Source: Anaerolineales bacterium
GTDB taxonomy: Bacteria > Chloroflexota > Anaerolineae > Anaerolineales > Villigracilaceae
Assembly: GCA_034432535.1 (NCBI GenBank)
Contig: DAOUBR010000079.1
Span: 20,290-84,289 of the forward strand
DNA: 64,000 nucleotides
Direction of reading: 5' to 3'
A program made the position numbers and the translations under genes. The notes beneath the pieces are model-generated. The model had not been told where the DNA came from and made no database searches. It saw nothing but the letters and a program-made list of their open reading frames with translations. Below, piece by piece: positions 1 through 45,529 of this stretch (position 1 is the stretch's first letter; the number at the start of each line of letters is the position of its first letter).

Positions 1-1
1 G

Positions 2-280
2 GGCGGGCTGCAACTGGTGGAGTTTTTCCGCTTCACTTGAGGAACCTGCCGCGCGATGGCGCCCATAGTTCATGGGCTGGAAGCGAAGTATTACGGAAAA
101 ATCAAGTTCGTCTTTTTAGACGCGGACGACCTCGCCACGAAGAAATTTCAAAGCGAGCTCGGGTTTTATTACCAGCCGGAATTTTATCTGCTGGACGGGA
201 ACGGAAACGTGCTGAAAAAATTCGTAGGGTATGTTGAGCCGCAAGATTTTGAAGCCGAGTTCGCAAAACATTTGCCGTAG
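2..280 (+). CDS. thioredoxin-fold protein (5' end outside window) with in-frame TGA at first redox-motif position (T-U-G-T-C); candidate selenoprotein
   Basis: Frame 2 reads GGLQLVEFFRFT-TGA(38..40)-GTCRAMAPIVHGLEAKYYGKIKFVFLDADD...YLLDGNGNVLKKFVG. This matches the thioredoxin pattern VDFWAxWCGPCKxIAP...GKL...D, with the TGA at the first Cys. Hairpin GCCCAT/ATGGGC lies at 61..77. The ORF track starts only at the Met after the motif (56). Confidence 0.6.
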
Positions 281-301
281 GCTCTTCTTTCGAGGCGCTA
301 T

Positions 302-364: not shown

Positions 365-1036
365 ATGAAAAACCCAAGACTGGCTCGCGCAATTTACGGC
401 GGAAGCGCGCTCAGCGCGCTGACGTTACTTTTCTTCTCGCTATCGCTTGGCGGGTGCGGATTTTCTTCCGCCACGCCCACGCCGGACGTCGCATACATTG
501 AGGCATTGGTGCAGACCAGCATCGCCTCCATGCCGACCTTCGCGCCCAGCCCCACCCCGCCGCCCGCCGAAGTCCCGCCGACGGCGACGGCGACCGCGTC
601 CCTGCCTACGCCCACGCTCACGCTGATTTTTCAGCCCTCGCCAACCGCCACCCCCAGCCTGACGGAATGCCCGCTGATTGTGACGCTGACGGATACCAAA
701 GCGGGCGATCTGCTTCACGTGCGGCGCTGCGAAGATAATCTGGAATACGATTTAGGTCCCCTCGCCAAGGGCGTTTACGCCGCCGGACCGAATTACAAAT
801 TTATCGTCTATGTCGCCAACAACGGTTACTTATACGCGGCGCGCGTCGGGGAGGATCATCTCTCCCTGCTGAAAGATTTAGTCAAGGAAAGAAATTACAC
901 GGCGGTCAATCGCGGCGTTCCCCCGCGCTTTGTCATCTCCTTCAGAGGCGAAGCGCCGTATTATAAAATCATCCTCTACGAAGGGCGTTTTGCGCAGAAA
1001 TACGAATACTCCGTGCCAGCCTGGATGGCGGAGTGA
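365..1036 (+). CDS. putative lipoprotein with Pro/Thr-rich linker, function unknown
   Basis: N-terminal signal peptide with lipobox-like LSLGGC, then a PT-rich low-complexity linker and a globular C-terminal part. SD-like GGAGGA lies upstream. Confidence 0.6.
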   Translation: MKNPRLARAIYGGSALSALTLLFFSLSLGGCGFSSATPTPDVAYIEALVQTSIASMPTFAPSPTPPPAEVPPTATATASLPTPTLTLIFQPSPTATPSLTECPLIVTLTDTKAGDLLHVRRCEDNLEYDLGPLAKGVYAAGPNYKFIVYVANNGYLYAARVGEDHLSLLKDLVKERNYTAVNRGVPPRFVISFRGEAPYYKIILYEGRFAQKYEYSVPAWMAE

Positions 1037-6401: not shown

Positions 6402-9400
6402 CTACGGGACGGGGACATAATACTGAATGACGAGCTGCGGACGATACGCCGCAAGCGCTTCGCCGGAATAGAACTTGACGAGGTCGGCGACGAAGTTTCG
6501 ATTCGTCGGAAGCGAGAAGCGCAGGCGGAATTGAACGGTATCGCTCAATGGAAGCGCGGCTTTGGCGGAATTGATGAGCGGGGCGTTATACCACCCCCCC
6601 GAATCGGGAGTCTTGCCAACCACGCCCGCAACCGTATCCAGCGAGGGAAGCGCCTCAAAATCGCTCGTTTCCAGCCCTGGGCTGCCGCCGAATTGCGGGA
6701 CGGACATATTGACGAACAGGCTGCCGTGCGTCATGAAGGGGTTGCGACCGACCACGCCTGCGTTCTTCATCTTGAGCGTGGCGGAAGAAATGACCGCGCC
6801 AGCAGGCAGGTTAACCTGGAAGCTCAGCACGGAGCGATATTGCCGATTATCGGCGGAATCGCCCAAAAACAGGACGCTGTTGCGGTTCAAAGAACCGCCC
6901 GTCAGATTCAACGCGGAAGAAGACAAAATCCAGCCGTCTTGCAGGGGCGCGACGGGGGTCAGGGTCGTCATGCGTTGCACGGCAACTTGCAGCGAGCCGT
7001 TCACATAGTTGATGGTATAGTTTCCGCCCGCGTTCGCGCCGGAGCAGATAATATCGTAGCGCGCCACGCTGGAAACGCTGGCGCCGGGAGCGGAACAAGT
7101 CGGCGGAGTGAAGCCCGGCGTGAAGAAGCTTTCGCCCGGGACAAAGCCGGTAACTGTGTAAGTGTAAACCGGCAGGCTCGTGTTGACGTAGGCAATTTTG
7201 TTATCCGCCGTAACGGTAAGCAAAGCGGGGGAAATGGTCGCCGAGTCGGTATTTTGCGTTGGCGAGCCGTAATTCGCGCCGTTGTTGCCGTCGTTGATAT
7301 AAGGCGTCAGCGTGCGCGCGCCGGCGTTTTTCGAATCGAAAGTCTGATAGACCGAATCGCCGGCAAAGAGCAATGTGGAGCAATCGGTCGCGCCGTTGCA
7401 CAGCGGAGAGACAGCCGAAGCGTTGGAGCCGTCGTAGTTTTTATTCGCGCCGCTTGCGACGGAATCGACGGAGGCAATAAACGCCTGATTCGGCGGGCAG
7501 GAAATATCGGGGTCAATATCCGCGTTGTAAGCGGCGCAGCCCGCCGCGCTATACGGGTAAATATCGGCGGTCAGCCCGATGATCGGCGCGTCGTCGAGCC
7601 TGTAATAGACGGCGTCCGTCCCGGTGAGCGTCCCGCTGGCGGAGACCGGCTTGTCCGCGCCGACGTGCTTATCTCCAAGGACGCCTTCGGTCACGGAAAC
7701 GCTCACGTTGGAATAGGCAGGCAAGACGCCGTCAAAGGTGAGCGCGCCGGGGGTCACTGTCACCGTATTGGTTCCGTTGTATAGGCGGCTGAAAGCGGTC
7801 AAGCCGCCGGTGATGGTCAGCGTGCGTTTGGTAATTTCGCCGGTAGATACGGAAACGGTCGTAATTTGATAATTATTTCCGCCGTTGTCGTCGTCAATCG
7901 GGAGAGCGACGATTTGCATTTCCTTGCCCGTCCCGATGTTCATATTGTCAAATTTCTGCTCCCACGTCCCGGGGGCGTCGCCCGCGACCAGAGAGCCGGA
8001 GGTAATCACCGGGGTTTCGTCGGAAGAATCCGTTCCGTCAAATTCTTTGGTATCCGCGACGGAAGAAACAGTCAGCGGGCGTCGAGCGACGGTCAGGTTC
8101 GCGCTGCCTGCGCTGGGCGAATAAGTAATATCGCCGGCGAAGGAGGCGACGACTCCCTCGCCCGGGTTGGAAGCGAAATACTCGCCCGCGTTCACTCTGA
8201 GCAAAACGCCGGACAGCGTGGCGACGCCGCTTGCGTTGGTGACCGCGCTGCCGAGGCTCGCGCCGTTGTTGAAGTTGAAATCCACCGTGCGCCCGACGAC
8301 GGGCAACCCGTTGGAGAGCAAAGTAGCCGAAAGCGAGACGGTATCGCCGTAGGTCGCATTAATCGCGCCGACCGTCAAACCCGTCGGCGGCAGTTCGCCG
8401 ACCACAAAATCGGAAGAAGCGCCGAGCGTGGTAAAGCCAGCGTTCACCGCGACGCTCATCATCGGGTCGGCGACGGAATCGCGCGCGTAGTTCGCCAGCT
8501 CAGGGACGAACCATGGCGGCGTGGTGGAAGGCGTGGTCTGATATTTGCGAACCATAAAGGCGGAGGGATTCGCGCCGGCGTCTATGTGCGCGTTTTGGAA
8601 GCCAAACTCAGCCTGAAAAGCGGAAGAGACGAAGCCGCCGCCCGTCGTTAACTTCCAGTAACGATTGACGTTTTTCAGTTGATTAATGCCGGAGGTGGCG
8701 ACCGCGGCGTGCTCGGTAGGCGTGACGGGAACGGCGGCGGTTACGAAGCCGGCCGTCGTCACGTTCATATTGGAGACGATGAGCGGGCGATAACCGTTCA
8801 CGTCGCCGACGGCGAAGTTGAAAGATTGCCCGGCGCCGACGTTGAAGGATTTCTTCAACTGGGCGACGTAGATATACGAGCGTTCATTGCCGCCGATAAG
8901 CGTTCCGCCTGCATTAATGGCGATGACGATGGAAGAAGAGCTGCCCGTCATCACGCCGTTCGTCAGGTTGAGAACGTCTGTGATGGTGGTATTGCCTTTG
9001 ACAAGCAAGCCCGCGCCTGTGTTGTTGACCGTCAGATTGGGGAAGGTTGTCACGCCGTTGATGGTCTGCTGCGCGGCGCCATTGAAGACCACCGTTCCGG
9101 TTCCGGTGAAAGAGCCGTACGTCCCGCGCGTCCAGTTGCCGCCGACGGTCAGGGTTTTATCCGCAATGTTTAGCGCGCCGACGTTGCTAGTGGCGCTGAG
9201 CGTCAGGTTGCCGGGCACGTTTAAATTGTCTTGAAGGTTGACCACCGCCGTGCCGTTGATGTTGAAGTTGCCGTTGATGATCGTGCCGGCTGGGATAGTT
9301 TTGATTCCGCTGCCGGCGAAGGTCAGCGTGTAGTAAGTGGATTCCTTAACCGTCTGACCTCCAGCCAGATTGTAAGTGACCGTGTTGCCCGGCGTGGAAG

Positions 9401-12400
9401 CGTTAATGGTCACGCTCGTCGCGCCAATATCGGAAAATTGGATATTCAAGACGCCCGTCGCGCCCTGAGTCAGAGTTCCGTTGCCGGTGAGCGAGCCGCC
9501 CGCCAGAGTCAGCCCCGCGGCGTTGTTATTTGTCACGTTTACGCCGGAGGCAATATCAAGGTTGACGATGGAAATGGCTTTAGAGCCGCCAATGGCTTGG
9601 TCGGCGGTTTCGAAGTAGTAAACGCCCGCGCCGGGAGTGAAAGAGCCGCTGGCGGAGCTGTTGTTGATCAGCCCGCCGCGCAGATGAACGTCCGTGTTGC
9701 CGGAGTTGGTCCACTTGCCCGCCGTTCCGCCAATCGTCACCGCGCCGATGTAGGTCTTGGTTCCCGTCGCGCTGGCGTGAACGAGCGAACCGTTCACGGT
9801 GGTCGTTCCGTTCACGGTGATGTTATGGTCGGCTACCGTGAAGGTTCCGGAGTTAATGACCAGATTGCCGCCGATGTTCAGGTCCGCGCCGGTGGCTGCG
9901 GCGGAGGTCGTCAACGTCAGATTGCCATTGACGGCGGAGACGCCCGTCAGGGTCTTCGCGCCCGCGCCGCTCAAGCCGAGATGGTGATAAGTTCCCGCCT
10001 TGACGGTTTGCGCCGCCGCGCCGGTGTAATTCACCGTGTTCGGGTTCGCCGAAGCGTCGAACGCATTGATTGTATTCGCGCCAGAAATGTTCAAGACCGC
10101 GTTGAGGCTTTGGGTTAGCCCGCCGGCGCCGCTCAGGTTGGTCACGGTCAAGCCGTTAGCGAGATTGTTCGTCAGCGTAATTCCGTTTACCGTGACGGCG
10201 CCCATCGTCACGGCTTTCGTCCCGCCGATAGTCTGGTCGTTGGTATTGAAGGTGTAAACCGCCGTCGTGCCGCCGGTGAAAGTTCCGCCCACAGTCAAGC
10301 CGCCCTGGAAGGTGATGGGCGCGTTGGCGGTATTATCCCAGGTTCCCGTCACCGTGACCAAGCCTTTATAGACTTTGCTTCCCAAGTTGCTGGTGTGCGA
10401 TAGTTTGCCGTTGATGGTAGTCGGTCCGTCCACCTCGATATTGAAGGCGCCGACTCCAAAGGTGATTCCCGTTCCAATCGTCAAACTATCCTGCACGACA
10501 ACGTTGCCGGATAACGCTTTGGTGTAAGCCGTCGTACCGCTGAAACGATAGACTTCCAGTTTGTAATAGGTCAAGCCGAGAATGGGCTGGTTGGAATTGC
10601 CGTCGTAGCGGATCGTGCCGCTTTCGGGGTCCAAAACTCCCGCGCCGGGAGTCGTGGAGCCGGAGAAGTAAACCGAGCTGCTGCCGCCTTCGAGCATTCC
10701 GGCAGTCATCGTCCACGAGCTAAAACGATGCGTAAATCCCGCGCCGAGATTGAGCGTTCCGCTGATAATTTCCAGGGGACCGCGGTTGGCGGTGGTGGTG
10801 GCGCTGGGCGCGCCGAAATCTCCGGTCAGGGTCGCCACGCCGCCGGTTTTTTGCACGCGGAGCGCTCCAGATTGGGTGTTCAGCCCGGCGATGGCTTGCG
10901 CGCCCGCGCCGTTCAAGATCAGGTTCAAGCGCCCGACTTCCGCGTCGCCGGAGTCAATGTAATCTCCGCCGAGGTTGACGGAGGCGTAGCCGGAAGTCCC
11001 GGAAGTCACGAGCGTTCCGCCGCCGTTATCGAGGTTTCCGGTCAGGGTCAGGGTGGAGCTGGTCGCCAGAGTCAAATAGCCGGGGTCGCCGCCGACGTAA
11101 TTGGTCAGGCTGGCGGCGGAAATTTGCGCCCCTGCCGCGTTGCTGGCGCTTCCGGCGTTTATCAGGCTGCCGCCAATATTGACAATCGAATCGTAGAAAG
11201 CGACGGTTCCAATGTTGGTAAAATCTCCGTTCACCGTCAGATGATAATTGGCTGCCGCGCTGGCGCCCGTATCGAACTTGGAGTTCGCGTCTTGCACGAG
11301 GAAGTTCCCCGCGATGACTTTATCGCCGTTGAGCAGCACCTTGCGCCCGTTTTTGACGATGACGCCGCCGGAGCCGTTGAAAGGCGAGACCCATTCCGGT
11401 CCTGCGGTGTACGCCGTCGTGCCGGTCATGTTGTATTGCAAGGTCGCGTTTGGTCCGTAGGTCGGCGCCGCGGAGACCGCCGCGCTGCCTTCAATAGATA
11501 AGACGCCGTTCACCGTAACGCCCGCCGTGGTCTTAAGGTTCGCCGCCGCGCCGCCCAAAGTCAGGTTGTGATAAGTTCCTGGCTGAACGGTCTGCGCGCC
11601 GGAGAGGTTATAGATCACGGCGTTGCCCGCCGCGCTGGCGTCGAGAGTCGGGGCCAGGCTCGCCGCTTGCAGCGTCAGCGTGGCAGTCGCGCCCTGCGTT
11701 AAAGTTCCCCCTCCGTTCAAGCTGGAGGTCACGGTCAGGCTGCCGTTGTTCGTGTAAGTTCCCGTGATATTTGCGTTGGCGACCGAAAGCGTTCCGTCAA
11801 AGTTTTTGCCCGCGCCAGCAAAGGTCAGGGCTCCCGTTCCGGAGGTAAACGTCCCGTTATTGGTCAGGTTGCCGTTAAAAGTGACAGCGACAATTTTGGC
11901 GCCGTCCGTGCCGTCGTTGTCAAATTCGCCGCCGGCAGCGACGGTGAAATCGCCGTTATAAGTTTTCGTCCCCGTCGCGTTGTTGTGCTGTAATTTTCCA
12001 TCGGTAATTGTGGTTGCCCCGTCCACCTGAATATTCGACTGTCCAATTTGCAAGACCGGTCCGCCCCCATAGGTGGAATTAATCGTCAAATCGCCCTTTA
12101 CCCACAGCGTCTTGCCGCTGACGTTATACGCAGAATAGGCGGAGCCTTGATAGGAGAGGTTGCCGTTGACGGTAAAGTTATCCGAAGGCAATATCTTATT
12201 TCCGCTCCCCGCCAGGACAAGGTTATGGTAAACGAGGATAGTTAATTTAAGCGTCTGGTCGTCCGCTTTCTCGTAAAACACCGTATTGGAGTTTGTCGTT
12301 GCGTCAAAAGTCGTCAGCGTCCAATCTGCATTGCCAAAGCCGGCATGGAACTCGCTTGCCGTTCCTTGCGTTAAGGAGCCGCTTCCTTTAAGGGAAGCCG

Positions 12401-13472
12401 CAATATTTAAAATCCCGTTGTTTGTGTAGGAACCGTCAATCGTCACATTGGGAATAGAAACGACGCCGCTAAAAGTTTTACTGGCGCCGGTAAAAGTATG
12501 AACGCCGCTATTCGCGCGATTAGGCGTGGTTAAGATGTTTCCGTCCGTATCCATCGTTCCATTGTTCGTGAAATTGCCGGCAAAGGTGAACGCTTCCGCG
12601 ACTCCCTCTTGCCACATGCCGCCGCTTTCAATCGTTACGTCCCCGTTAAACGTCTTCGTTCCGGCAGTGTTGGAAAAGTTAATCGCCCCGTTCACGGTCG
12701 TCGCGCCGTTTACGGTTAAGTTCACGCCGGGGACGTTCAAATTTCCGTTGACCGTTAAGTTCGTAACCGTCGTAGCGCCGTTAAGAGTCTTCCATCCCGT
12801 TCCGTTAATTTGCAGGTTGTAATACGTCAAAGCCGCGACGGTCTGGTCTCCCGAAGCGCCGTAAATCGCCGTGCTGGTTCCGGCGTTGAAAGCGCCGTTG
12901 TTCGTTAAAGAGCCGTTGAGCGTGAGCGTGGTCGCGCCCGCGTTGAAGGTCGTCCCCATTTCAATGGAGAAAGCGCCGTTCACGACGATTGCGCCGCCCG
13001 CCGTTTTCGTCCCGCTGCCGGCGGTGGAAAGATTGTAATACGTCAAAGCCGCGACGGTCTGGTCTCCCGAAGCGCCGTAAATCGCCGTGCTGGTTCCGAA
13101 GTTGAAAGTCCCGCTGTTGGCGAAAGAGCCGTTCAAGGTCAGGGTGGAAGCGCCCGCGTTGAAGGTCCCGTTGTTCGTCAATCCGCCCGTCACGACAAGG
13201 GCGTAGTCAGCCGTGTTTAACGTCGCGCCAGATTGAATCGTCAAGCTGTTCACCGTCGTATTATCCGTAAGCGTCACCGTATCGCCGGCGACAATGGTCA
13301 CGTCGTCGGTCGCGGCGGGAACGCTTCCGCCCGACCACACGGCGGTATCGCTCCAAAAGCCGCCGCCCGTTCCATTGCTGGAAACGCTCGCCGCGTACGC
13401 CGGCGCCGTCAGCGTAGCCGCCAGCAGGATAGCGATAAGAGCCGATAAGATTCTAAAAAATTGAGATTTCAT
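6402..13472 (-). CDS. giant secreted repeat protein (about 2356 aa): beta-helix-like repeats, Ig-like and YDG/MBG-like modules, DNRLRE-like C-terminal domain; putative adhesin or surface protein
   Basis: Signal peptide MKSQFFRILSALIAILLAATLTAPAYA at ATG 13472. About 1500 aa of G/T/N-rich periodic modules (..TFN.G..T..Y.G.G.QTV...TYYNL.L.G.G.KT..). Later come Ig-like segments and YDG/MBG-like repeats (LYNGTN, NYTINYVNGSLQV). The last about 190 aa (6405..6980) carry SADNRQYRSVLSF. Confidence 0.85.
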   Translation of the reverse strand: MKSQFFRILSALIAILLAATLTAPAYAASVSSNGTGGGFWSDTAVWSGGSVPAATDDVTIVAGDTVTLTDNTTVNSLTIQSGATLNTADYALVVTGGLTNNGTFNAGASTLTLNGSFANSGTFNFGTSTAIYGASGDQTVAALTYYNLSTAGSGTKTAGGAIVVNGAFSIEMGTTFNAGATTLTLNGSLTNNGAFNAGTSTAIYGASGDQTVAALTYYNLQINGTGWKTLNGATTVTNLTVNGNLNVPGVNLTVNGATTVNGAINFSNTAGTKTFNGDVTIESGGMWQEGVAEAFTFAGNFTNNGTMDTDGNILTTPNRANSGVHTFTGASKTFSGVVSIPNVTIDGSYTNNGILNIAASLKGSGSLTQGTASEFHAGFGNADWTLTTFDATTNSNTVFYEKADDQTLKLTILVYHNLVLAGSGNKILPSDNFTVNGNLSYQGSAYSAYNVSGKTLWVKGDLTINSTYGGGPVLQIGQSNIQVDGATTITDGKLQHNNATGTKTYNGDFTVAAGGEFDNDGTDGAKIVAVTFNGNLTNNGTFTSGTGALTFAGAGKNFDGTLSVANANITGTYTNNGSLTVTSSLNGGGTLTQGATATLTLQAASLAPTLDASAAGNAVIYNLSGAQTVQPGTYHNLTLGGAAANLKTTAGVTVNGVLSIEGSAAVSAAPTYGPNATLQYNMTGTTAYTAGPEWVSPFNGSGGVIVKNGRKVLLNGDKVIAGNFLVQDANSKFDTGASAAANYHLTVNGDFTNIGTVAFYDSIVNIGGSLINAGSASNAAGAQISAASLTNYVGGDPGYLTLATSSTLTLTGNLDNGGGTLVTSGTSGYASVNLGGDYIDSGDAEVGRLNLILNGAGAQAIAGLNTQSGALRVQKTGGVATLTGDFGAPSATTTANRGPLEIISGTLNLGAGFTHRFSSWTMTAGMLEGGSSSVYFSGSTTPGAGVLDPESGTIRYDGNSNQPILGLTYYKLEVYRFSGTTAYTKALSGNVVVQDSLTIGTGITFGVGAFNIEVDGPTTINGKLSHTSNLGSKVYKGLVTVTGTWDNTANAPITFQGGLTVGGTFTGGTTAVYTFNTNDQTIGGTKAVTMGAVTVNGITLTNNLANGLTVTNLSGAGGLTQSLNAVLNISGANTINAFDASANPNTVNYTGAAAQTVKAGTYHHLGLSGAGAKTLTGVSAVNGNLTLTTSAAATGADLNIGGNLVINSGTFTVADHNITVNGTTTVNGSLVHASATGTKTYIGAVTIGGTAGKWTNSGNTDVHLRGGLINNSSASGSFTPGAGVYYFETADQAIGGSKAISIVNLDIASGVNVTNNNAAGLTLAGGSLTGNGTLTQGATGVLNIQFSDIGATSVTINASTPGNTVTYNLAGGQTVKESTYYTLTFAGSGIKTIPAGTIINGNFNINGTAVVNLQDNLNVPGNLTLSATSNVGALNIADKTLTVGGNWTRGTYGSFTGTGTVVFNGAAQQTINGVTTFPNLTVNNTGAGLLVKGNTTITDVLNLTNGVMTGSSSSIVIAINAGGTLIGGNERSYIYVAQLKKSFNVGAGQSFNFAVGDVNGYRPLIVSNMNVTTAGFVTAAVPVTPTEHAAVATSGINQLKNVNRYWKLTTGGGFVSSAFQAEFGFQNAHIDAGANPSAFMVRKYQTTPSTTPPWFVPELANYARDSVADPMMSVAVNAGFTTLGASSDFVVGELPPTGLTVGAINATYGDTVSLSATLLSNGLPVVGRTVDFNFNNGASLGSAVTNASGVATLSGVLLRVNAGEYFASNPGEGVVASFAGDITYSPSAGSANLTVARRPLTVSSVADTKEFDGTDSSDETPVITSGSLVAGDAPGTWEQKFDNMNIGTGKEMQIVALPIDDDNGGNNYQITTVSVSTGEITKRTLTITGGLTAFSRLYNGTNTVTVTPGALTFDGVLPAYSNVSVSVTEGVLGDKHVGADKPVSASGTLTGTDAVYYRLDDAPIIGLTADIYPYSAAGCAAYNADIDPDISCPPNQAFIASVDSVASGANKNYDGSNASAVSPLCNGATDCSTLLFAGDSVYQTFDSKNAGARTLTPYINDGNNGANYGSPTQNTDSATISPALLTVTADNKIAYVNTSLPVYTYTVTGFVPGESFFTPGFTPPTCSAPGASVSSVARYDIICSGANAGGNYTINYVNGSLQVAVQRMTTLTPVAPLQDGWILSSSALNLTGGSLNRNSVLFLGDSADNRQYRSVLSFQVNLPAGAVISSATLKMKNAGVVGRNPFMTHGSLFVNMSVPQFGGSPGLETSDFEALPSLDTVAGVVGKTPDSGGWYNAPLINSAKAALPLSDTVQFRLRFSLPTNRNFVADLVKFYSGEALAAYRPQLVIQYYVPVP
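12817..13098 (-). repeat. recent intragenic tandem duplication (216-bp period) inside giant gene
   Basis: 65-bp stretch TTGTAATACGTCAAAGCCGCGACGGTCTGGTCTCCCGAAGCGCCGTAAATCGCCGTGCTGGTTCCG is identical at 12817..12882 and 13033..13098. It encodes STAIYGASGDQTVAALTYYNL twice. Confidence 0.85.
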
Positions 13473-13586
13473 GAAGTCCTCGCTTTCGTACAATGACTCA
13501 CGTAAGATTAAAAATAACAATTTCATGACAGTTTTTATTCCGCTTATATTATACATTCTAGTCCCTCGATAAAATCCACAGTTTTG

Positions 13587-18230: not shown

Positions 18231-18395
18231 TTATTTTACCAGAGTATCAGAGTTCTTCCTTTCAACTTTTTTTTCGAGGTTGCGCAAGCGTCGCTCAACG
18301 TTGAAGTAATAACGCCGCAGCCAGAAGGGGACGATCAACAACGCCAGAGCCAGCAAGCAGGTGACTGAAAGCTCAAGAGAACTGACGTAAAACAT
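18231..18395 (-). CDS. small (54 aa) single-TM protein, hypothetical
   Basis: MFYVSSLELSVTCLLALALLIVPFWLRRYYF... The ATG overlaps the selD stop (TAATG). Confidence 0.35.
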   Translation of the reverse strand: MFYVSSLELSVTCLLALALLIVPFWLRRYYFNVERRLRNLEKKVERKNSDTLVK

Positions 18396-19456
18396 TAAGC
18401 CCTGACCTCGATTCCTGCGCCGGCGCGGACTTCGCCCACCACCCAAACGGCTTGATCGAGCTCGCCGGCGCGGGCTTGAAAGGCTTCCAGTTTTTCTTGC
18501 GGAACTCCCAGGAGCAAGCCGCCGCTGGTTTGCGGGTCGAAGAGCAACATGCGGGCGGGTTCGCCGAGCGCTTCGTCAAAGCGCGCCCAGTCGCCGAAGT
18601 TTGCCATGTTGTCGAACGCGCCGCCGGGGAAGAAGCCCTTTTCGGCATAATGCCGCGCGCCTTCCAGAAACGGCAGTTTGGAAAATTCAATTCGCAGCGC
18701 AACGCCGGAAGCTTTCGCCATTTCCAGGGCATGTCCGAGCAAGCCAAAGCCGGTAATATCCGTTCCGCCGCGCAAGCCCATTTCAGCGGCGAGTTGCCCG
18801 GCGGCTTTGTTCAAGTGCAGCATCCACAGAATCGCTTCTTGAATGTCGCCTTCGCGCGCCTGCTGCTGTTTGAGCGCGGTGGTGGTCACGCCGCAGCCAA
18901 GCGGCTTGGTGAGGACCAGCGCGTCGCCGACTCGCAAGCCGTTTTTGCCGATGATTTTTTGCGGATGAACCATGCCCAAAACCATCAGCCCATACTTCGG
19001 CTCTTTGTCTTTGACGGTATGTCCGCCGGCGATGACTACGCCGGCTTCGCGCGCCTTTTCCGCGCCGCCGCGCAAAATTTCGCTGGAAATTTCGGACGGC
19101 AAATGATCAGGCAGCGCGGCGATGTTTAAGGCGAGGAAAGGCGTCCCACCCATCGCGTAGACGTCCGAAAGGCTGTTCGCCGCCGCTATCGCGCCGTATT
19201 CGTAGGGCGTATCCACCACCGGGGTGAAGAAATCGGTCGTGGCGACCAGCGCCTGCTCGTCGCTAAAACGCCAGATCGCCGCGTCGTCGAGAGATTCAAG
19301 CCCGACGAGCAGGCTGGGATAATCGGCGGGGTTAAAAATATTTTGCAAAGGGCGCAGCACCTGCGCCAACGCTTCCGCGCCTAGTTTGGAAGCTCAGCCG
19401 GCGCAAGCGGACAAGGTCGTGAGGCGCACTTCGCGCCCGGATTGTGGAATTGCCAT
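18395..19456 (-). CDS. selD: selenide, water dikinase (selenophosphate synthetase) with in-frame UGA (Sec) in the N-terminal catalytic loop
   Basis: From ATG 19456 the frame reads MAIPQSGREVRLTTLSACAG-TGA(19396..19394)-ASKLGAEALAQVLRPL..., aligning to E. coli SelD [24 protein letters not shown] with TGA at Cys17. The rest is an AIR-synthase-like SelD body. The ORF track truncates the gene to the TTG at 19369. Two hairpins follow the TGA. Confidence 0.8.
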
Positions 19457-36437: not shown

Positions 36438-36824
36438 ATGGAGACCAAAACGTTTGAAACGCCCGCATTATACGGCGACCATCACGTTATGGAAGCGAGG
36501 CGCATTTTGCTGGAACTAGAGGGGGTGAGCGACGTGTACGCGAGCAGCGCATTTCACGTCATTGAAATCACCTTCGACCCGGAAAAAGTCAAAGCGGAGG
36601 AAATCACCGCGCGACTGGAAGCCGCCGGCTATTTAGGCGAAATTCCCGTCGCGGCGGAAAGCGGCATGGCGGTGGAAAAGAAAGAAGGCGACGGCGTCTT
36701 CCGTCATACTGCCGTGTACGAAACGGTCAAGGGGACGATTTCTTTTGCGCAGCGCGTGAGCTATTCGGGACGTCCGCTTTGGCCCTGTCCCGGCATGGAG
36801 CCGATTAAGGTCGTCAAAGAGTGA
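36438..36824 (+). CDS. uncharacterised 128-aa protein, HMA/ferredoxin-like N-terminal fold without CxxC; first gene of the acs operon
   Basis: Strong SD AAGGAGAGG. The N-terminus (..ALYGDHHVMEARRILLELEGVSDVYASSAFHVIEITFDPEKVKAEEITARLEAAGY) has a beta-alpha-beta-beta-alpha-beta pattern with GDHH where HMA domains carry CxxC. The C-terminus has WPCPG. Confidence 0.6.
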   Translation: METKTFETPALYGDHHVMEARRILLELEGVSDVYASSAFHVIEITFDPEKVKAEEITARLEAAGYLGEIPVAAESGMAVEKKEGDGVFRHTAVYETVKGTISFAQRVSYSGRPLWPCPGMEPIKVVKE

Positions 36825-36850
36825 ATTCAGGTTTAGAGATAGAGAGGCGC

Positions 36851-38860
36851 ATGATGGCAAAAAAACGAGAAATTAAAGATTACTCCACCGACCCGGCAGC
36901 GCAACAAATGCTTATCCGGGCGGAGGAATTGGGCGTCGGCACGGCGTTCACCAGAGCCGACAACATGGTCCCATGCAACATTGGCGGCGCAGGCATGTGC
37001 TGTAAACAATGCGGTATGGGACCGTGTCGTTTAACCAAGAACGGCGACGTAGGCGTGTGCGGCGCGACCATTGACACCATTCAGGCGCGCAACCTCACCC
37101 GCGCCATCGCGGCAGGCGGCGCGGCGCATTCGGACCACGGGCGCGACATGGCGTTTCTGCTTAAAGCCGCCGCCAAAGGCGAAGCGGAAGGCTACGCCAT
37201 TCGAGACGTGGCGAAGCTGCGCATGGTCGCTTCCTATTACGATATTAAGATAGAAGGGCGCTCGCCGGAAGAGATCGCCATTGAGCTCGCAGATTTATAC
37301 ATCGCGCAGTTTGGGCAGCAAAGCGGAGAAATCGTCCCGATTAAGCGCGCGCCGAAAAAGCGGCAGAAACTCTGGCGCGAGCAAAAGGTCGTCCCACGCG
37401 GCGTGGACCGCGAAGTGGTGGAAGCGCTGCACCGCACGCACATCGGCGACGACCAGGAGCCGGAGCATATTCTTCATCACGCCATTCGCACGGCGCTGGC
37501 GGACGGCTGGGGCGGCTCGATGATTGCCACCGATATTTCGGATATTCTGTTCGGCACGCCCGCGCCCATTTTGGGGCAAGCCAACCTCGGCGTGATTAAG
37601 CGCGAGATGGTGAACGTGGTCGTTCACGGGCACGAGCCTTCGATGAGCGAAATGCTGGTGGCCGCCTCGCAGGACCCGGAAATTATCGAATACGCGCGCG
37701 CGGCGGGGGCGCAGGGCATTCAGCTTTCGGGAATTTGCTGCACAGCAAACGAGATTCTCATGCGGCAGGGCATCCCTGCGGCGGGCAACTTCCTGCATCA
37801 GGAACTTTCAATCATGACCGGCGCGGTGGAAGCCATGGTGGTGGACGTGCAGTGCATTATGCAAGCGTTGGTCGGGCTGGCGCAGAACTTCCACACCAAA
37901 ATTATCACCACTTCGCCGAAGGTGAAAATCAAGGGGGCGACGCACATCGAATTCGACGAACATAAGGCGTTCACGGTCGCCAAGCAAATCCTCAAGACGG
38001 CGATTGACAATTTCAAGAATCGCGCGCCGGAAAAGGTGCTGATTCCGCAGATTAAAGAAGACGTGATTCCGGGTTTCTCGCACGAGTACATCAACTACAT
38101 GCTCGGCGGCTCCTACCGCGCTTCCTTCCGCCCGCTGAACGACGCGATTATGAGCGGGCGCATTCGCGGCGTGGCGGCGATTGTCGGCTGCAACAACCCG
38201 CGCTCCTCGCAAGATTACCTGCACAACAAAGTGGTGAAAGAGCTGTTAAAGCAGGACGTGTTGGTGGTGCAAACGGGATGCGGCGCGATTGCGGCGGGCA
38301 AGCTGGGGCTGCTGCTCGGCGAAGCGGGCTTGAGCGAAGTCGGCAGCGGCTTGCGCGAAGTGTGTGAAACTATCGGCATTCCGCCCGTGCTGCACATGGG
38401 TTCGTGCGTGGACAACACGCGCATCCTCACCGTCTTAACGCAAATGGCGGAGACGGGCGGCTTGGGCGAGGACATTGACCAGATTCCCGCCGTCGGTCTC
38501 GCCCCCGAATGGATGAGCGAAAAAGCGCTCGCCATTGCGACGTACTGCGTCGCCTCCGGCGCCTACGTCATCTTCGGCGGCGCTTCGCCCGTAGGCGGCA
38601 TGCCCGACCGGGTGAACGATAGCGACATTGTGCTGCGTTACATCAGCGAGGGCTGGGAAAAACTCTACGGCGGCAAACTGGAATTCATCCCCGACCCGGA
38701 CGAGATGATTAAAGCCACGCTTGCGCACATTGACAAGAAGCGCGCGGCGCTCGGTCTCCCCGCATGGGAGCCGAATAAGTTTGGGCGCAGCGGCGACGCC
38801 AAAATGAACGAACTCGAAGCCTTGCCGCTGGAAGCGAAGCGCGAAGCGATTTATGGATAG
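36851..38860 (+). CDS. cooS: anaerobic Ni-Fe-S carbon-monoxide dehydrogenase catalytic subunit
   Basis: N-terminal cluster motifs CNIGGAGMCCKQCGMGPCR and VCGAT. Length and C-cluster region are typical of CooS/AcsA. Confidence 0.95.
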   Translation: MMAKKREIKDYSTDPAAQQMLIRAEELGVGTAFTRADNMVPCNIGGAGMCCKQCGMGPCRLTKNGDVGVCGATIDTIQARNLTRAIAAGGAAHSDHGRDMAFLLKAAAKGEAEGYAIRDVAKLRMVASYYDIKIEGRSPEEIAIELADLYIAQFGQQSGEIVPIKRAPKKRQKLWREQKVVPRGVDREVVEALHRTHIGDDQEPEHILHHAIRTALADGWGGSMIATDISDILFGTPAPILGQANLGVIKREMVNVVVHGHEPSMSEMLVAASQDPEIIEYARAAGAQGIQLSGICCTANEILMRQGIPAAGNFLHQELSIMTGAVEAMVVDVQCIMQALVGLAQNFHTKIITTSPKVKIKGATHIEFDEHKAFTVAKQILKTAIDNFKNRAPEKVLIPQIKEDVIPGFSHEYINYMLGGSYRASFRPLNDAIMSGRIRGVAAIVGCNNPRSSQDYLHNKVVKELLKQDVLVVQTGCGAIAAGKLGLLLGEAGLSEVGSGLREVCETIGIPPVLHMGSCVDNTRILTVLTQMAETGGLGEDIDQIPAVGLAPEWMSEKALAIATYCVASGAYVIFGGASPVGGMPDRVNDSDIVLRYISEGWEKLYGGKLEFIPDPDEMIKATLAHIDKKRAALGLPAWEPNKFGRSGDAKMNELEALPLEAKREAIYG

Positions 38861-38906
38861 CCGAACAGACTGGCAATGAGCGACGCTAGACCAGGAGAGT
38901 ACATCC

Positions 38907-41174
38907 ATGTCACGATATATAGCTACCCGCGCCATTCGGGGCGCAAACGCGCTCGTCACCGAAGCGGAGTTGATGTTGAACAAAGCGCTCGCGGAAAAAG
39001 GACCCGAAACGCCGGTGACTTTCCCCAACACCGCCTACTACCTGCCGACCATTTTAGGCATGACCGGCAAAGCGGTGGAAAAACTCGGCGACTTGAAGCC
39101 GGCGATGGAATACGCGCGCAATTTACTGCATCCCCTTCCCGCTCAAAAACGTTGGACGCCCTATCTCGGCGAGACGCTCGATTCCGGCATAGCGACGCTG
39201 CTCGCCGCCGAAACCATCGAAGCGATTCGCTTCGTTTATGGCTTGCAGCCCGAAGCCGCGCCGGGCTTTACGCTGGCGGGCGGAACCAACTACGGCGAGC
39301 AAAACGGACACGGTCACTTAAACGGGCCGATTGACGATATTCAACTCCGCTCGTGGGGCATTCAATTGGTGGATGGACGCATGCCCGGCTTCGCGGCGAT
39401 TGTCGGCTGCGCGAAATCGAACGAAGTGGCGGTGAAAATCGTCCGCGAATTGCAACGGCGCAACATCCTCACCTTCCTTTCGGGCAACGTAAACGGCAGA
39501 AGCGTCATTCACCAGCTGCAAGAAGAAGGCGTGGAGCTCGGCTACGATACCTACACCGTCCCCTTCGGCACGGATACCATCTCCGCCATTTACGCGCTGG
39601 GCTTCGCCACCCGTTCCGCGCTGACCTTCGGCGGCTTGAAGCCCGGTCAAGCGCGCGAGATTCTGCTTTACAACAAAGAGCGTGTTTTCGCCTTTGTGCT
39701 GGCTTTGGGCGAGGTGGACGATTTGAAATACGCCGCGGCGGCGGGGGCGATTAACTTCGGCTTCCCAGTCATCGCCGATACGGTCATCCCCGAAATTCTG
39801 CCCACGGGCGTCACCACCTACGAACATGTCGTCTCTATGCCGTTCAATCAAATCGAAGGCAAGGACGATTTAGAACGCGCCGAAAGGCTGGTGCAAAAGT
39901 GCATTGAAGTGCGCGGCGTCAAGGTCAAAGTCTCCAACGTGGACGTGCCTGTGCCGTACGGCTCGGCGTTTGAAGGCGAAGTGGTGCGCAAGGCGGATTT
40001 GCGCGTCGAGTTCGGCGGCAAGCACGCCCGCTGCTTCGAGTATTTGCAAATGGCGAAGTTGGATGAAATCACCGACGGCAAGATTCAAGTGATTGGTCCC
40101 GATTTCTCGCAGGTCCCGCCCCAAGGCGCGATGGACATGGGAATCGTCATCAAGGTCGCCGGGCGGCAAATGCAGCAGGATTTCGAGCCGGTGCTGGAAC
40201 GTCAGGTGCATTACTTTATCAACGGCGCGAGCGGCATTCAACACGTCGGGCAGCGCGATATTGCGTGGATTCGCGTCTCAAACAACGCGGCGGACAAGGG
40301 CTTCAACCTCGAGCACTTCGGCAAGATTCTGCACGCGCGCTTCCACGAAGACTTCGGCGCGATTGTGGACAAAGTGGAGGTGACGATCGTCACCGACCCG
40401 GCGCTGCACGCCGAATGGCTGGAAAAAGCCCGCGCGGCTTACGACTTCCGCAACAAGCGTCTCGCCGACCTGACCGACGACAAAGTGGAAGAGTTCTACT
40501 CCTGCACGCTGTGTCAATCGTTCGCGCCCAATCACGTTTGCGTGGTTTCGCCCGAACGGCTGGGCTTGTGCGGCGCGTATAACTGGCTGGACTGCAAAGC
40601 CTCGTATAGCATCAACCCGACGGGTCCCAATCAGCCCATCAAACTCGGCAAATTGATTGACCCGAAAAAAGGCTACTGGACCGGCACGAACGAATACGCC
40701 GCCATCGGCTCGCACGGCGTGGTGAACGAAGTGACGATGTATTCCATCATGGAAAACCCGATGACGGCTTGCGGCTGCTTTGAGTGCATCGTCATGCTCA
40801 TCCCCGAAGCCAACGGCGTGATGGTGGTCAGCCGCGAAGATACCAGCATGACTCCCGCGGGCATGACCTTCTCGACTCTGGCGGGCATCGCGGGCGGCGG
40901 GCTGCAAACGCCGGGCGTGATGGGCGTGGGCAAGTTTTATTTGCTCAGCCCCAAGTTCATCTCCGCCGACGGCGGCTTCAAGCGCATCGTGTGGATGTCC
41001 TCCGTGCTGAAAGAGACGATGGCGGACGAGCTCAAAGCCGTCTGCGAGCGCGAAGGCGACCCCGACTTCATGTCCCGTGTGGCGGATGGAAATGTCGCCA
41101 CCACTGTGGAGGAATTGCTCGCGTGGATGGAAGCGCACAATCACCCCGCGATGGCGATGGAGCCGATGTTTTAG
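38907..41174 (+). CDS. acsB: CO-methylating acetyl-CoA synthase (ACS alpha subunit)
   Basis: FPNTAYYLPTILG N-terminal motif and an A-cluster region with CTLCQSF..C...C.. and MTACGCFEC; 755 aa. Confidence 0.95.
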   Translation: MSRYIATRAIRGANALVTEAELMLNKALAEKGPETPVTFPNTAYYLPTILGMTGKAVEKLGDLKPAMEYARNLLHPLPAQKRWTPYLGETLDSGIATLLAAETIEAIRFVYGLQPEAAPGFTLAGGTNYGEQNGHGHLNGPIDDIQLRSWGIQLVDGRMPGFAAIVGCAKSNEVAVKIVRELQRRNILTFLSGNVNGRSVIHQLQEEGVELGYDTYTVPFGTDTISAIYALGFATRSALTFGGLKPGQAREILLYNKERVFAFVLALGEVDDLKYAAAAGAINFGFPVIADTVIPEILPTGVTTYEHVVSMPFNQIEGKDDLERAERLVQKCIEVRGVKVKVSNVDVPVPYGSAFEGEVVRKADLRVEFGGKHARCFEYLQMAKLDEITDGKIQVIGPDFSQVPPQGAMDMGIVIKVAGRQMQQDFEPVLERQVHYFINGASGIQHVGQRDIAWIRVSNNAADKGFNLEHFGKILHARFHEDFGAIVDKVEVTIVTDPALHAEWLEKARAAYDFRNKRLADLTDDKVEEFYSCTLCQSFAPNHVCVVSPERLGLCGAYNWLDCKASYSINPTGPNQPIKLGKLIDPKKGYWTGTNEYAAIGSHGVVNEVTMYSIMENPMTACGCFECIVMLIPEANGVMVVSREDTSMTPAGMTFSTLAGIAGGGLQTPGVMGVGKFYLLSPKFISADGGFKRIVWMSSVLKETMADELKAVCEREGDPDFMSRVADGNVATTVEELLAWMEAHNHPAMAMEPMF

Positions 41175-41229
41175 ATTGCGGACGCCATTTTCGAGAGAGA
41201 TTCTAACCATCCATAGCCGAATATTCGCG

Positions 41230-41255
41230 CTATCAGACTCGCAACTATCAGACTC
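41230..41255 (+). repeat. two copies of CTATCAGACTC 15 bp apart, just upstream of the acsD RBS
   Basis: Copies at 41230..41240 and 41245..41255. SD AAGGAG follows at 41258. Confidence 0.6.
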
Positions 41256-41269
41256 TCAAGGAGCGCATT

Positions 41270-42214
41270 ATGCCGATTGAAATTCCAAAAGATAAATGGG
41301 CGGGAAGCGTAAAGAAAGTCGTCATTGGCGCAACGGGCGCGGAAGGAGGCACGCGCGCCAAAACCGTCGTCGTCGGCGGGCAGACCTGCATGCCCTACCT
41401 GCGCTTTGAAGCGCCGACGCCGAACAAACCGGCGGTCGCCATTGAAATCAAATCGCGCAAGCCGGAAGATTGGTCGCCGCTGCTGGCGGAAGTTTGGGGA
41501 GACGCGATGAACAACCCCGCCGACTGGGCGAAGAAAGCCGAAGAAGCCGGGGCGGATTTAATCGTCCTCGCGCTGACGCTGGAAGATTCGCCCGAAGACG
41601 CGGTTAAAGCCGTGAAAGCCGCGCTGGGCGCGAGCGGTCTCCCGCTTATCGTTTGGGGACCCGGACAGGCGGAAAAAGATAACGAGCTGCTCGTCCCCGT
41701 CGCCGAAGCGACCAAAGGCGAAAAAATCGTCTTGGGAATTTGCGAAGACAAGAACTACCGCACCATCGTGGCGACCGCCATGGCGAACGGGCATCTGGTT
41801 CAAGCGCGGACGCCGATGGACGTCAACCTCGCCAAGCAGTTGAACATCCTGATTACTGACATGGGCTTGCCAGCCGACCGCATCATTATGGACCCGACCA
41901 CCGGCGCGCTGGGCTACGGAATCGAATACGGCTATTCGGTGATGGAACGCCTGCGGCTGGCGGCTTTGCAAGGCGACGCAATGACTCAGATTCCCATGCT
42001 CGTCACGCCGGGGTTTGAAGCGTGGAAGACGAAAGAATCCAAAGTCGGCAAGGGCGTGCCGGAAGCCTGGGGAGATTGGAAAGCCCGCGCGATTCACTGG
42101 GAGGCGCTGACGGCGATGGCGCTGGTCGAAGCCGGCGCGGATATTCTCGTCCTGCGGCATCCCGAATCGGCGAAGCAAATCAAAGGCGCAATCGAAGAAT
42201 TGACGGCTGCGTAA
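41270..42214 (+). CDS. acsD: corrinoid iron-sulfur protein small subunit (CdhD/AcsD)
   Basis: 314 aa; collinear with Moorella AcsD (KVVIGATGAEGGTR..VVVGG, DPTTGALGYGIEYGYSVMERLRLAALQGD). Confidence 0.9.
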   Translation: MPIEIPKDKWAGSVKKVVIGATGAEGGTRAKTVVVGGQTCMPYLRFEAPTPNKPAVAIEIKSRKPEDWSPLLAEVWGDAMNNPADWAKKAEEAGADLIVLALTLEDSPEDAVKAVKAALGASGLPLIVWGPGQAEKDNELLVPVAEATKGEKIVLGICEDKNYRTIVATAMANGHLVQARTPMDVNLAKQLNILITDMGLPADRIIMDPTTGALGYGIEYGYSVMERLRLAALQGDAMTQIPMLVTPGFEAWKTKESKVGKGVPEAWGDWKARAIHWEALTAMALVEAGADILVLRHPESAKQIKGAIEELTAA

Positions 42215-42223
42215 GGAGGAACT

Positions 42224-43540
42224 ATGGCGCTCACAGGCATTCAAATTTACAAAATGCTTCCGCAGACCAACTGTAAGGAATGCGGCTTCCCCACCTGTCT
42301 GGCGTTTGCGATGAAGCTCGCCGCCAAGCAAGTGGAACTTTCCTCCTGCCCTTACGTCAGCGAAGAATCAAAGAAGCAGCTGGCGGAATCCGCCGCGCCG
42401 CCGATTCGGTTGGCGACGCTCAAAGCCGGGACGGAAGTGAAAGTCGGCAACGAAGTGGTGATGTACCGTCACGAAAAAACCTTCTACAACAAGCCGGGCT
42501 TGTTCGTGCGCGTCCAAGCCTCCGACCCCGAACTGGCGGGGAAAGTCGCAGCGATAGACGCTTACAAAGTCAATTACGTCGGCATGGATTTTACGATTGA
42601 CGGCTTCGCGGTGGAAGGCGAAGGCGACCTTGCGGCGGCGGTTAAGACCGTGCGCGGCGCAAGCAAGCGCCCGTTGATTTTGATTTCCTCCGACCCCGCC
42701 GCGCTCGATTCCGCGCTGGCAAATATAGCCGGCGAAACGGCCTTGATTTACGCGGCGGATTCTTCCAACGCCGACGCGCTGGCGGAAATCGCCAAGAAAC
42801 ACAAAGCCGCGCTCGCCGTCAAAGGCGATTCGATTGACGCGCTCGCCGAATTGACCCAAAAGATTCAGGCGAAGGGCGTGGAAGACATGGCGTTGGATTT
42901 GGGCGGGAAAAACCTCGGCGAATGGCTGCAACGCTCCACTCAGGTTCGCCGCCTCGCCGTCAAAGCCAATCAGCGCTCGGTAGGCTACCCGACGATTTTC
43001 TTCGCCGGGCAAAACGGCGCGGAAAAAGAACCCATCTACGCCGCGCAAGCCATCGCCAAATACGCGGGCTTCGTCGTGCTGGACGCCTTTACGCCCGAAC
43101 TCGCTTACGCCCTGCTCGTGCTGCGCGAAAACATTTACACCGACCCGCAAAAGCCGATTCAAGTGCAGCCGGGAATCTACGAAATCAACTCGCCCAAGCC
43201 CGAAAGCCCCGTGCTGGTGACCACCAATTTCAGCATCACCTACTTTGCGGTGGCGAACGAAGTGGAAGGCAGCGGCTTGCCCGCGTGGCTGGTCGTCTGC
43301 GACGCGGAAGGCATGTCGGTGCTGACCGCGTGGGCGGCTGGCAAGTTTGACGCGGAACGCATCGCCAAGGCGATCAAGAATTTCAACGTCGCCGAAAAGG
43401 TCAGCAAGAAGCGCGTCGTGCTGCCCGGTCACGTTTCCGTCCTCTCCGGCGAGCTGGAAGGCGAACTGCCCGATTGGGAGATTCGCGTCGGGCCCCGCGA
43501 GGCGGTGGATTTGCCCGCGTTTATGAAACAGGCTCTTTAG
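42224..43540 (+). CDS. acsC: corrinoid iron-sulfur protein large subunit (CdhE/AcsC)
   Basis: N-terminal [4Fe-4S] motif NCKECGFPTCLAFAMKLA...SCPYVS; 438 aa. Confidence 0.9.
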   Translation: MALTGIQIYKMLPQTNCKECGFPTCLAFAMKLAAKQVELSSCPYVSEESKKQLAESAAPPIRLATLKAGTEVKVGNEVVMYRHEKTFYNKPGLFVRVQASDPELAGKVAAIDAYKVNYVGMDFTIDGFAVEGEGDLAAAVKTVRGASKRPLILISSDPAALDSALANIAGETALIYAADSSNADALAEIAKKHKAALAVKGDSIDALAELTQKIQAKGVEDMALDLGGKNLGEWLQRSTQVRRLAVKANQRSVGYPTIFFAGQNGAEKEPIYAAQAIAKYAGFVVLDAFTPELAYALLVLRENIYTDPQKPIQVQPGIYEINSPKPESPVLVTTNFSITYFAVANEVEGSGLPAWLVVCDAEGMSVLTAWAAGKFDAERIAKAIKNFNVAEKVSKKRVVLPGHVSVLSGELEGELPDWEIRVGPREAVDLPAFMKQAL

Positions 43541-43550
43541 AGAATTAGCG

Positions 43551-43587
43551 ATTGGTAATTGGTAAGCGCGGCTTACCAATTACCAAT
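43551..43587 (+). other. perfect 17-bp inverted repeat (strong stem-loop or palindromic site) between acsC and acsV
   Basis: ATTGGTAATTGGTAAGC-gcg-GCTTACCAATTACCAAT with no T-run. Followed by TCCTCCCCC and ATG 43597. Confidence 0.85.
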
Positions 43588-43596
43588 TCCTCCCCC

Positions 43597-45528: not shown

Positions 45529-45529
45529 A

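Follow-up and report, generated by a model that had tools for sequence, protein, structure and literature searches.

Introduction

Sec-containing thioredoxins are known as small soluble proteins. As a type (Trx, PF00085, UxxC), they are entered as experimentally characterised in the inventory of PMC13188914, and exchange between selenocysteine (Sec) and cysteine is the rule for selenoproteins (PMC13188914). The bacterial SECIS (bSECIS) is described by an apical loop of 3–9 nt, a stem of 4–16 bp and a distance of 16–37 nt from the UGA codon (PMC13188914, Fig. 2 legend), together with a G at loop position 1 or 2, after which G or U usually comes, and a minimum free energy (MFE) of ≤−7.5 kcal/mol (PMC13188914).

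Thioredoxin-fold selenoproteins with a UxxC motif are an established class, and the principle is not new; the gene described here is itself apparently new and is unannotated. It lies at the start of a 64-kb stretch of DNA from an Anaerolineales bacterium (contig DAOUBR010000079.1), the whole of which is hereafter called the window. With a probability of about 0.93, its in-frame TGA codon at positions 38..40 encodes selenocysteine, placed in the active site of a thioredoxin-like protein that is predicted to be exported and anchored to the membrane. The literature consulted on selenoproteins in Anaerolineae and Chloroflexota makes no mention of a lipoprotein form.

Results

An in-frame TGA codon interrupts a thioredoxin-like gene

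In frame 2 of the + strand, the window opens with GGLQLVEFFRFT-TGA-GTCRAMAPIVHGLEAKYYGKIKFVFLDADD...KHLP-TAG, and positions 2..283, translated in frame, read GGLQLVEFFRFT-stop-GTCRAMAPIVHGLEAKYYGKIKFVFLDADDLATKKFQSELGFYYQPEFYLLDGNGNVLKKFVGYVEPQDFEAEFAKHLP-stop. A mechanical ORF listing yields just the Met-initiated piece 56..280 (74 aa), as the initial annotation had pointed out. The complete gene has 155 codons; positions 2..280 of the window represent its 3' two-thirds, and its 5' part, situated upstream of the window, was taken from Logan contig L001/L082. L001 and the window differ at 2 of 5280 overlapping nucleotides (99.96% identity). An exact look-up of the 74-aa fragment of the window returned no match, and the near-identical P0001/L001 was used instead. 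The whole-gene product of L001 reads MKTGRLSPTLIAAALLLAAC-APQNPAPPPAAASPSANQPQAAATSRGDQLQATDPATVSLASGGLQLVEFFRFT-U-GTCRAMAP...HLP and consists of 154 residues, with a thioredoxin domain of about 105 residues whose active site is F-T-U-G-T-C-R. Recovering the upstream sequence, as had been proposed at the outset, thus placed a lipoprotein signal peptide (MKTGRLSPTLIAAALLLAAC) and a Pro/Ala-rich linker of about 40 residues ahead of this domain. The features of the locus are collected in Table 1.

Elsewhere in the window TGA serves as a genuine stop, in agreement with the first reading of this DNA: it is the normal stop at 1034..1036 and terminates 10 of the 42 long non-overlapping ORFs, so that the genetic code is not reassigned. 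When the window was scanned for other ORFs split by TGA, selD was the sole credible one.

The gene directly downstream (365..1036, + strand) encodes a 223-aa protein with a lipoprotein-like signal (…SLSLGGC) and no Pfam family, and is not kept beside the selenoprotein gene in other species. The window also contains a very long ORF of 2384 aa (6402..13556, − strand) and a Wood-Ljungdahl type cluster (36821..46453, + strand) comprising a Prismane/CODH family protein, an ACS/CODH beta subunit and a RACo corrinoid activator. From this cluster, the source organism is likely an anaerobe with the carbonyl branch.

Table 1. Features of the Sec-thioredoxin locus, of selD and of related loci. Positions are those of the window unless a locus is named.
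Feature	Position	Strand	Evidence
Twelve codons before the Sec codon (GGLQLVEFFRFT), strand beta-1	2..37	+	Translation; AF2 model; conservation in 80 orthologues
UGA, very probably selenocysteine, first (nucleophilic) position of U-G-T-C	38..40	+	TGA in 80/80 orthologous loci; alignment to first Cys of CxxC
TGC, resolving Cys of UxxC	47..49	+	Invariant Cys
Rest of thioredoxin domain after Sec, including cis-Pro loop, and stop TAG (278..280)	41..280	+	Translation; Pfam; PDB; AF2; Foldseek
Pro codon of YQPE, cis-Pro loop	176..178	+	Pro invariant; cis conformation predicted
SECIS hairpin GCCCAT-agttc-ATGGGC	61..77	+	Stem 61..66 / 72..77; loop AGUUC 67..71; starts 20 nt after UGA
Possible 4-bp helper hairpin GCCG-N5-UGGC, directly 5' of SECIS stem	48..60	+	RNAalifold consensus
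selD (selenide, water dikinase)	18395..19456	−	TIGR00476, 363 bits (cut-off 125)
Sec codon TGA of selD	19394..19396	−	U aligns with Cys17 of E. coli SelD (GCGCK motif)
selD hairpin GGCGCAG-GUG-CUGCGCC	19351..19367	−	7-bp G+C stem; GUG loop; 26 nt downstream of TGA
csoR-copZ-copA loci	L083 3001..6390; L091 1438..3850; L121 1324..3059		
Second Sec clade loci	L089, L099, L109, L113, L115, L120, L121, L133, L134, L136, L138-L163		

The TGA codon is conserved across Anaerolineales species

A protein search returned 226 relatives, nearly all of them called as 74-aa fragments that begin at the same Met and carry the NCBI name 'hypothetical protein'. Such uniform fragments point to a shared in-frame stop. 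When one genome per GTDB species was scanned, 208 relatives emerged, and the best 80 loci (L002-L081), almost all of them from Anaerolineales or Chloroflexota MAGs, were analysed. TGA occupied the same codon in all 80 of these species-level orthologous loci, as well as in L001 and in the window, and the gene is thus conserved in at least 80 Anaerolineales species. Three loci with typical Anaerolineales-type genes (L034, L052 and L077) came from MAGs labelled Bacteroidota, Herpetosiphon and Micrarchaeota; they are probably binning contaminants rather than occurrences outside Anaerolineae.

The coding sequence is conserved on both flanks of the in-frame UGA. The 28 codons that precede it are strongly conserved as protein, with many invariant positions (ATSRGPxLEATDPxTVxLASGxLQLVEFFRFT), and their synonymous entropy in the orthologue alignment is near maximal. 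The conserved peptide and the nearly saturated synonymous sites indicate purifying selection in one and the same frame on both sides of the UGA. The codon of the second Cys is TGC in 76 of 76 Sec forms; the Cys forms use TGC (16) or TGT (6) there.

An exhaustive HMMER search with the orthologue P0004 yielded 679 relatives, of which the 150 best representatives were classified by active site. CxxC was found in 41 of them, with a Cys at the position aligned to the UGA, SxxS in 26, DxxS in 23 and SxxC in 4. The CxxC homologues share 40–53% identity and the same architecture with the UGA-containing form. The UGA aligns with a Cys both in these relatives and in thioredoxins of the PDB, and its proposed location exactly on the nucleophilic Cys of CxxC was borne out by a Pfam match that runs across it and by the phmmer alignment with PDB thioredoxins described below.

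A covarying hairpin accompanies the UGA codon

The initial annotation had proposed the 6-bp hairpin downstream of the UGA as a SECIS element. On its own it folds at −9.2 kcal/mol, and among the Sec orthologues its consensus is GCCCAUG-GUU-CAUGGGC. Per-codon synonymous entropy, computed over 76 orthologues, amounts to approximately 0.9–2.0 bits over most of the gene and drops to 0–0.3 bits at codons +7..+14 (GCG CCC ATG GTT CAT GGG CTN GAA), which form the hairpin; the typical value outside it is about 1.8 bits. In the alignment of 80 sequences (A2, columns counted from the T of TGA), the helix columns 24-30 / 34-40 were 98.9% paired, with three pairs showing compensatory double changes, versus 12–54% paired in slid controls. 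In a combined alignment of 43 sequences including both Sec types (A5, see below), 96.5% of the cells were paired, and the covariation score was 0.224 versus ≤0.038 for slid partners. Pair 28:36 was A-U in 31 of these sequences, G-C in 12 and broken in none; its change links position 1 of an Ile/Val codon to the synonymous position 3 of a His codon.

As a negative control, 22 distinct CxxC genes were examined at the same columns. Only 40.9% of the cells were paired, at least six of the seven hairpin pairs were present in 0 of 22 genes, and the mean MFE was −3.3 kcal/mol versus −11.0 kcal/mol in the Sec forms. Synonymous entropy in these genes is high, though the peptide (MAPxVHxLE) is much the same. 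Since CxxC genes with a similar peptide lack the hairpin, its presence goes with the UGA and does not follow from the encoded protein.

The window hairpin fits all the published bSECIS constraints, with its 5-nt loop, 6-bp stem, folding energy and a spacing of 26 nt, which confirms the earlier estimate that the distance lies in the bacterial range; G stands at loop position 2 and is followed by U. Folded as a single sequence, the region does not stand out (z = 0.76 over 60 nt; z = −1.96 over the 23 nt of the hairpin), and Rfam gave no match at the gathering threshold over the whole window, nor at E up to 10 over positions 1..300. The case for a SECIS consequently rests on comparison, and it is there that the proposal was upheld: by selection at the nucleotide level, by covariation, by the fit to bSECIS constraints and by the absence of the hairpin from Cys homologues. 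Directly 5' of the stem, a possible 4-bp helper hairpin was 98.8% paired, with one-sided change only (G-U to A-U).

The product is a predicted lipoprotein with a classical thioredoxin domain

With U written as C, the 92 residues encoded in the window scored 39.9 bits against Pfam Thioredoxin PF00085 (cut-off 23.5; E 4.5e-10), and the match covered residues 4-85 of 92, spanning the UGA. A phmmer search against the PDB aligned FFRFT-C-GT-C-RAMAPIV with FWATW-C-GT-C-KMIAPVL of the S. aureus thioredoxin (E 3e-9). Both results substantiate the original alignment of this frame with the thioredoxin active-site segment. The AlphaFold (AF2) model of P0004 has a pLDDT of 89 overall and ≥95 over the domain, and exhibits the order beta(47-53), alpha(58-73), beta, alpha, beta, beta, alpha. 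Residue 56, which corresponds to U, comes just before helix alpha-1 (58-73), so that the redox motif is situated at the N-terminal end of this helix. The Pro of YQPE does not vary. Because the codons of strand beta-1 precede the UGA, the 74-aa fragment by itself could not adopt a thioredoxin fold. Foldseek searches with the model returned classical thioredoxins as the best PDB matches (TM 0.75–0.86, rmsd 1.2–2.1 Å).

The lipobox of L001 reads ...LLLAAC|APQ. Using our own regular expression as a strict pattern ([LVI][ASTVI][GAS]C), a signal peptide with lipobox was found in at least 69 of 75 complete upstream loci, and most of the others are visibly similar. With these features at the head of the upstream ORF, the start of the gene lies 75–150 codons before the UGA. 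The protein is thus best described, from its predicted features, as a classical thioredoxin domain, exported and lipid-anchored, with the active site T-U-x-T-C.

Other thioredoxin-fold families were considered and rejected. For TlpA/ResA/DsbE (CcmG), the dsbE model TIGR00385 scored 33.8 bits versus a cut-off of 123.15 and matched only over the C-terminal 40 residues, and by structure the best Foldseek neighbours of the model are plain thioredoxins. Redoxin PF08534 scored 21.5 versus a cut-off of 26.6, and PF13098 (Thioredoxin_2, 21.2 bits) and PF13905 (Thioredoxin_8, 17.0 bits) both remained below their cut-offs. DsbA/DsbG was likewise rejected as a home for this thioredoxin-like lipoprotein. 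NCBIfam matches at E up to 0.01 comprised only generic thioredoxin and dsbE models, all far below cut-off; SaoT (NF040730), HUIPC-motif (NF047660) and VPGUxxT (NF041383) were absent among them.

The window encodes a Sec-containing SelD

The selD gene, 19 kb from the thioredoxin gene, had been reported to carry a UGA at a Sec position, and its TIGR00476 score and the alignment with E. coli SelD (Table 1) corroborate this; the UGA also aligns with the corresponding position of the Aquifex enzyme. The selD hairpin resembles that of the thioredoxin gene in its similar G+C stem. ORF callers see only 18395..19369 of selD. As SelD is itself Sec-containing, Sec decoding is expected in the source organism. 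ARAGORN found no tRNA genes in the 64-kb window, and hence no tRNA-Sec, and no SelA or SelB was detected by Pfam among ten neighbouring or large ORFs of the window; with selA, selB and tRNA-Sec absent from these 64 kb, it is from the Sec-containing selD that the decoding machinery is deduced.

Alternative readings of the TGA codon

Gene callers treat the TGA as a genuine stop, which would turn the locus into two genes (a signal-peptide/linker ORF and a 74-aa ORF from the ATG at 56) or into a pseudogene. Accordingly, public records hold separate upstream fragments (P0170, P0185 and P0281) alongside the 74-aa ones, and a GAGGA precedes the ATG by 12 nt in the window. This GAGGA is not kept in other loci, codon +1 being GGN, AGY, GCN or TCN, and the Met is conserved inside the protein (xMAP), even in CxxC homologues. 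Neither beta-1 nor the active site would be present in the 74-aa piece, and a signal peptide, a linker and one strand would make up the upstream piece. Moreover, the stop recurs at one identical codon in 80 species, the same frame is under purifying selection both before and after it, and a pseudogene would not keep a covarying hairpin. Orthologues with an ordinary stop and a separate upstream gene, which the initial annotation had named as contrary evidence, did not appear; a conserved in-frame peptide flanks the TGA instead. We therefore regard a genuine stop as extremely improbable. An error of sequencing or assembly, concealing a true TGC or TGT, had also been envisaged. TGC is indeed read in L164, a divergent relative at a contig end, but the same TGA recurs in 80 independently assembled genomes, in 28 metagenomic genes of the sister clade and in L001, which reduces this chance to a practically negligible one. 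Given the TGA in 80 of 80 loci, the two-sided selection and the signal peptide with lipobox, a genuine stop, a pseudogene and a sequencing error are excluded for practical purposes.

The UGA might, on the other hand, be read through as Trp, Cys or Gly by a near-cognate or suppressor tRNA or under a reassigned code. Two JGI calls (P0004 and P0280) were deposited with W at the UGA position (FRFT-W-GTC), and Sec machinery other than selD was not found in the window. The same N-terminus was also deposited truncated at FRFT (P0281), and the P0280/P0281 pair suggests that the W in P0004 is apparently a code-4 reading of TGA on short contigs. The termination of 10 of 42 long ORFs by TGA argues against reassignment, and Trp or Gly would abolish function at this position, which in CxxC is held by the catalytic Cys. 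Read-through by another amino acid would also leave unexplained a SECIS-type hairpin specific to UGA-containing genes, and selD in the same window shows the same UGA-plus-hairpin layout at a known Sec position. We thus consider such a read-through highly unlikely, and decoding of the UGA as selenocysteine remains the preferred reading.

Sec, Cys and redox-dead forms of the family

The CxxC, SxxS and DxxS sites always occur in the context EFFA[FY]W, and the proteins that carry them are likewise lipoproteins of Chloroflexota or Anaerolineales. In P0128, P0130, P0131 and some 50 further representatives the redox cysteines are gone, and the lipoprotein/thioredoxin architecture is kept; these redox-dead members imply a putative non-catalytic role for part of the family.

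A metagenome scan queried with CxxC homologues also returned a second set of Sec forms, comprising 28 distinct genes in the context EFFA[FY]W-U-xxC, in which the classical Trp is kept. Their hairpin, GCCC[A/G]U-CGUGC-A[U/C]GGGC, is located at the same distance from the UGA. In a rough neighbour-joining tree without support values, the FRFT-U type of the window was monophyletic, and 46 of 51 Sec forms fell in one clade. Both Sec types occur in tandem in L123 (TGA at 1765 and 2361), and L136 contains paralogous Sec-thioredoxin lipoprotein genes in tandem (TGA at 1705 and 2154). No Cys form was found in the window clade among approximately 80 species, and no full-length Cys form of the FRFT type among the best 120 matches. 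The divergent relative L164 (109..123, contig end) reads TGC CCC CCC TGC (C-P-P-C) versus TGA-xxx-ACC-TGC elsewhere and largely retains the hairpin. A reversion from Sec to Cys, decay of the copy or poor sequence at the contig end could each account for it.

Gene neighbourhood

In 15 of 20 CxxC loci, an HMA motif was found approximately 1 kb downstream on the same strand. The gene order in L083, L091 and L121 is thioredoxin-like lipoprotein, csoR (PF02583), copZ (HMA) and copA, which suggests a putative copper-responsive operon; L121 contributes a Sec form of the second type upstream of csoR-copZ-copA. Further CxxC homologues upstream of csoR/copZ/copA were seen in L084, L086-L088, L090, L092, L094, L103, L108, L110, L114 and L127. 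An HMA motif was nearby in 1 of 80 loci of the window clade, and none was found in the 64-kb window.

Neighbourhood clustering of 79 loci identified a single conserved neighbour, a divergent upstream ORF of about 530 aa present in 69 loci, which, judged by eye, looks like an aldehyde dehydrogenase. The same clustering showed no conserved redox partner of the CcdA/DsbD type beside the gene, and motif scans for CcdA/DsbD-like or cytochrome c genes near the loci were uninformative.

Discussion

In the mechanism that we propose, the UGA would be decoded by Sec-tRNA(Sec), which SelB would deliver after binding the hairpin with its G-U in the apical loop, as the conserved structure suggests. The preprotein, judging from its lipobox, would then be exported and held by its lipid anchor at the outer surface of the cytoplasmic membrane. 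By analogy with thioredoxin-fold UxxC proteins, the selenolate would attack substrate disulfides or oxidised thiols, and the Cys three residues later would resolve the mixed selenenylsulfide.

At the level of the family, the protein may serve extracytoplasmic thiol protection under copper or oxidant stress. This role is proposed because CxxC relatives and at least one Sec relative are situated in csoR-copZ-copA operons; a literature search on selenoproteins with CsoR/CopZ gave nothing specific. A joint reading of the evolutionary history, which we put forward as tentative and rather doubtful, is that the Chloroflexota thioredoxin lipoproteins of CsoR copper operons switched from Cys to Sec, and that in the window clade Sec became fixed and the gene left the operon. 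If so, Anaerolineales would possess an order-wide, unannotated extracytoplasmic selenoenzyme that protects or repairs surface thiols when anaerobes face metal or oxidant stress, and redox homeostasis of the envelope in this order would be gated directly by the supply of selenium.

Digesters, sediments and groundwater harbour Anaerolineales in abundance. Every public record examined mis-annotates the gene, giving either 74-aa fragments named 'hypothetical protein' or code-4 translations that carry Trp, and the selenoproteome of the order is consequently undercounted. With Sec seemingly fixed over 80 species on an exported, lipid-anchored protein, the family offers a clean system for comparing Sec with Cys outside the cytoplasm. 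Its sister forms (Cys, Sec and dead site), some in csoR-copZ-copA operons, constitute a copper-stress lead and a ready-made evolutionary series, and the hairpin, compact and with strong covariation, would serve well for training models of the bacterial SECIS.

Comparison with known systems

The CxxC lipoproteins of Chloroflexota are homologues that share with the window protein the lipobox, the low-complexity linker, the ATDPxxVxLASG...EFF segment and, after the active site, xxMAPxVHxLE...YQP. They differ in their active site (W-C-xx-C versus T-U-xT-C here), in lacking the SECIS hairpin and in their copper-operon context, which the window clade does not have.

Like the bSECIS consensus (E. coli fdhF type), the hairpin is a stem-loop immediately 3' of the UGA with a small apical loop containing G and then U. 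Unlike it, the stem is short (6–7 bp), the loop is GUU or AGUUC/CGUGC, there is no evident long lower helix, and the possible 4-bp hairpin abuts it on the 5' side.

With the UxxC thioredoxin-fold oxidoreductases of the TlpA/ResA/DsbE-like profiles, the protein has in common the UxxC motif and a presumed extracytoplasmic location, and some fragments of its family carry a precomputed PF13098 match; it departs from them in scoring below the PF13098, PF13905, Redoxin and dsbE cut-offs and in its plain thioredoxin structural matches. Compared with WCGPC thioredoxins, the Trp before the active site is replaced by Thr (F-T-U-x-T-C). The resemblance to the Sec-containing thioredoxin, compared here by description, includes a PF00085 score above cut-off, UxxC with Sec at the N-terminal nucleophilic position, a classical thioredoxin fold and a bacterial SECIS within the coding region just after the UGA, whereas the window protein is predicted to be exported and lipid-anchored through its lipobox and long linker. 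By the convention of naming by domain and motif, the gene would fall under Sec-containing Trx.
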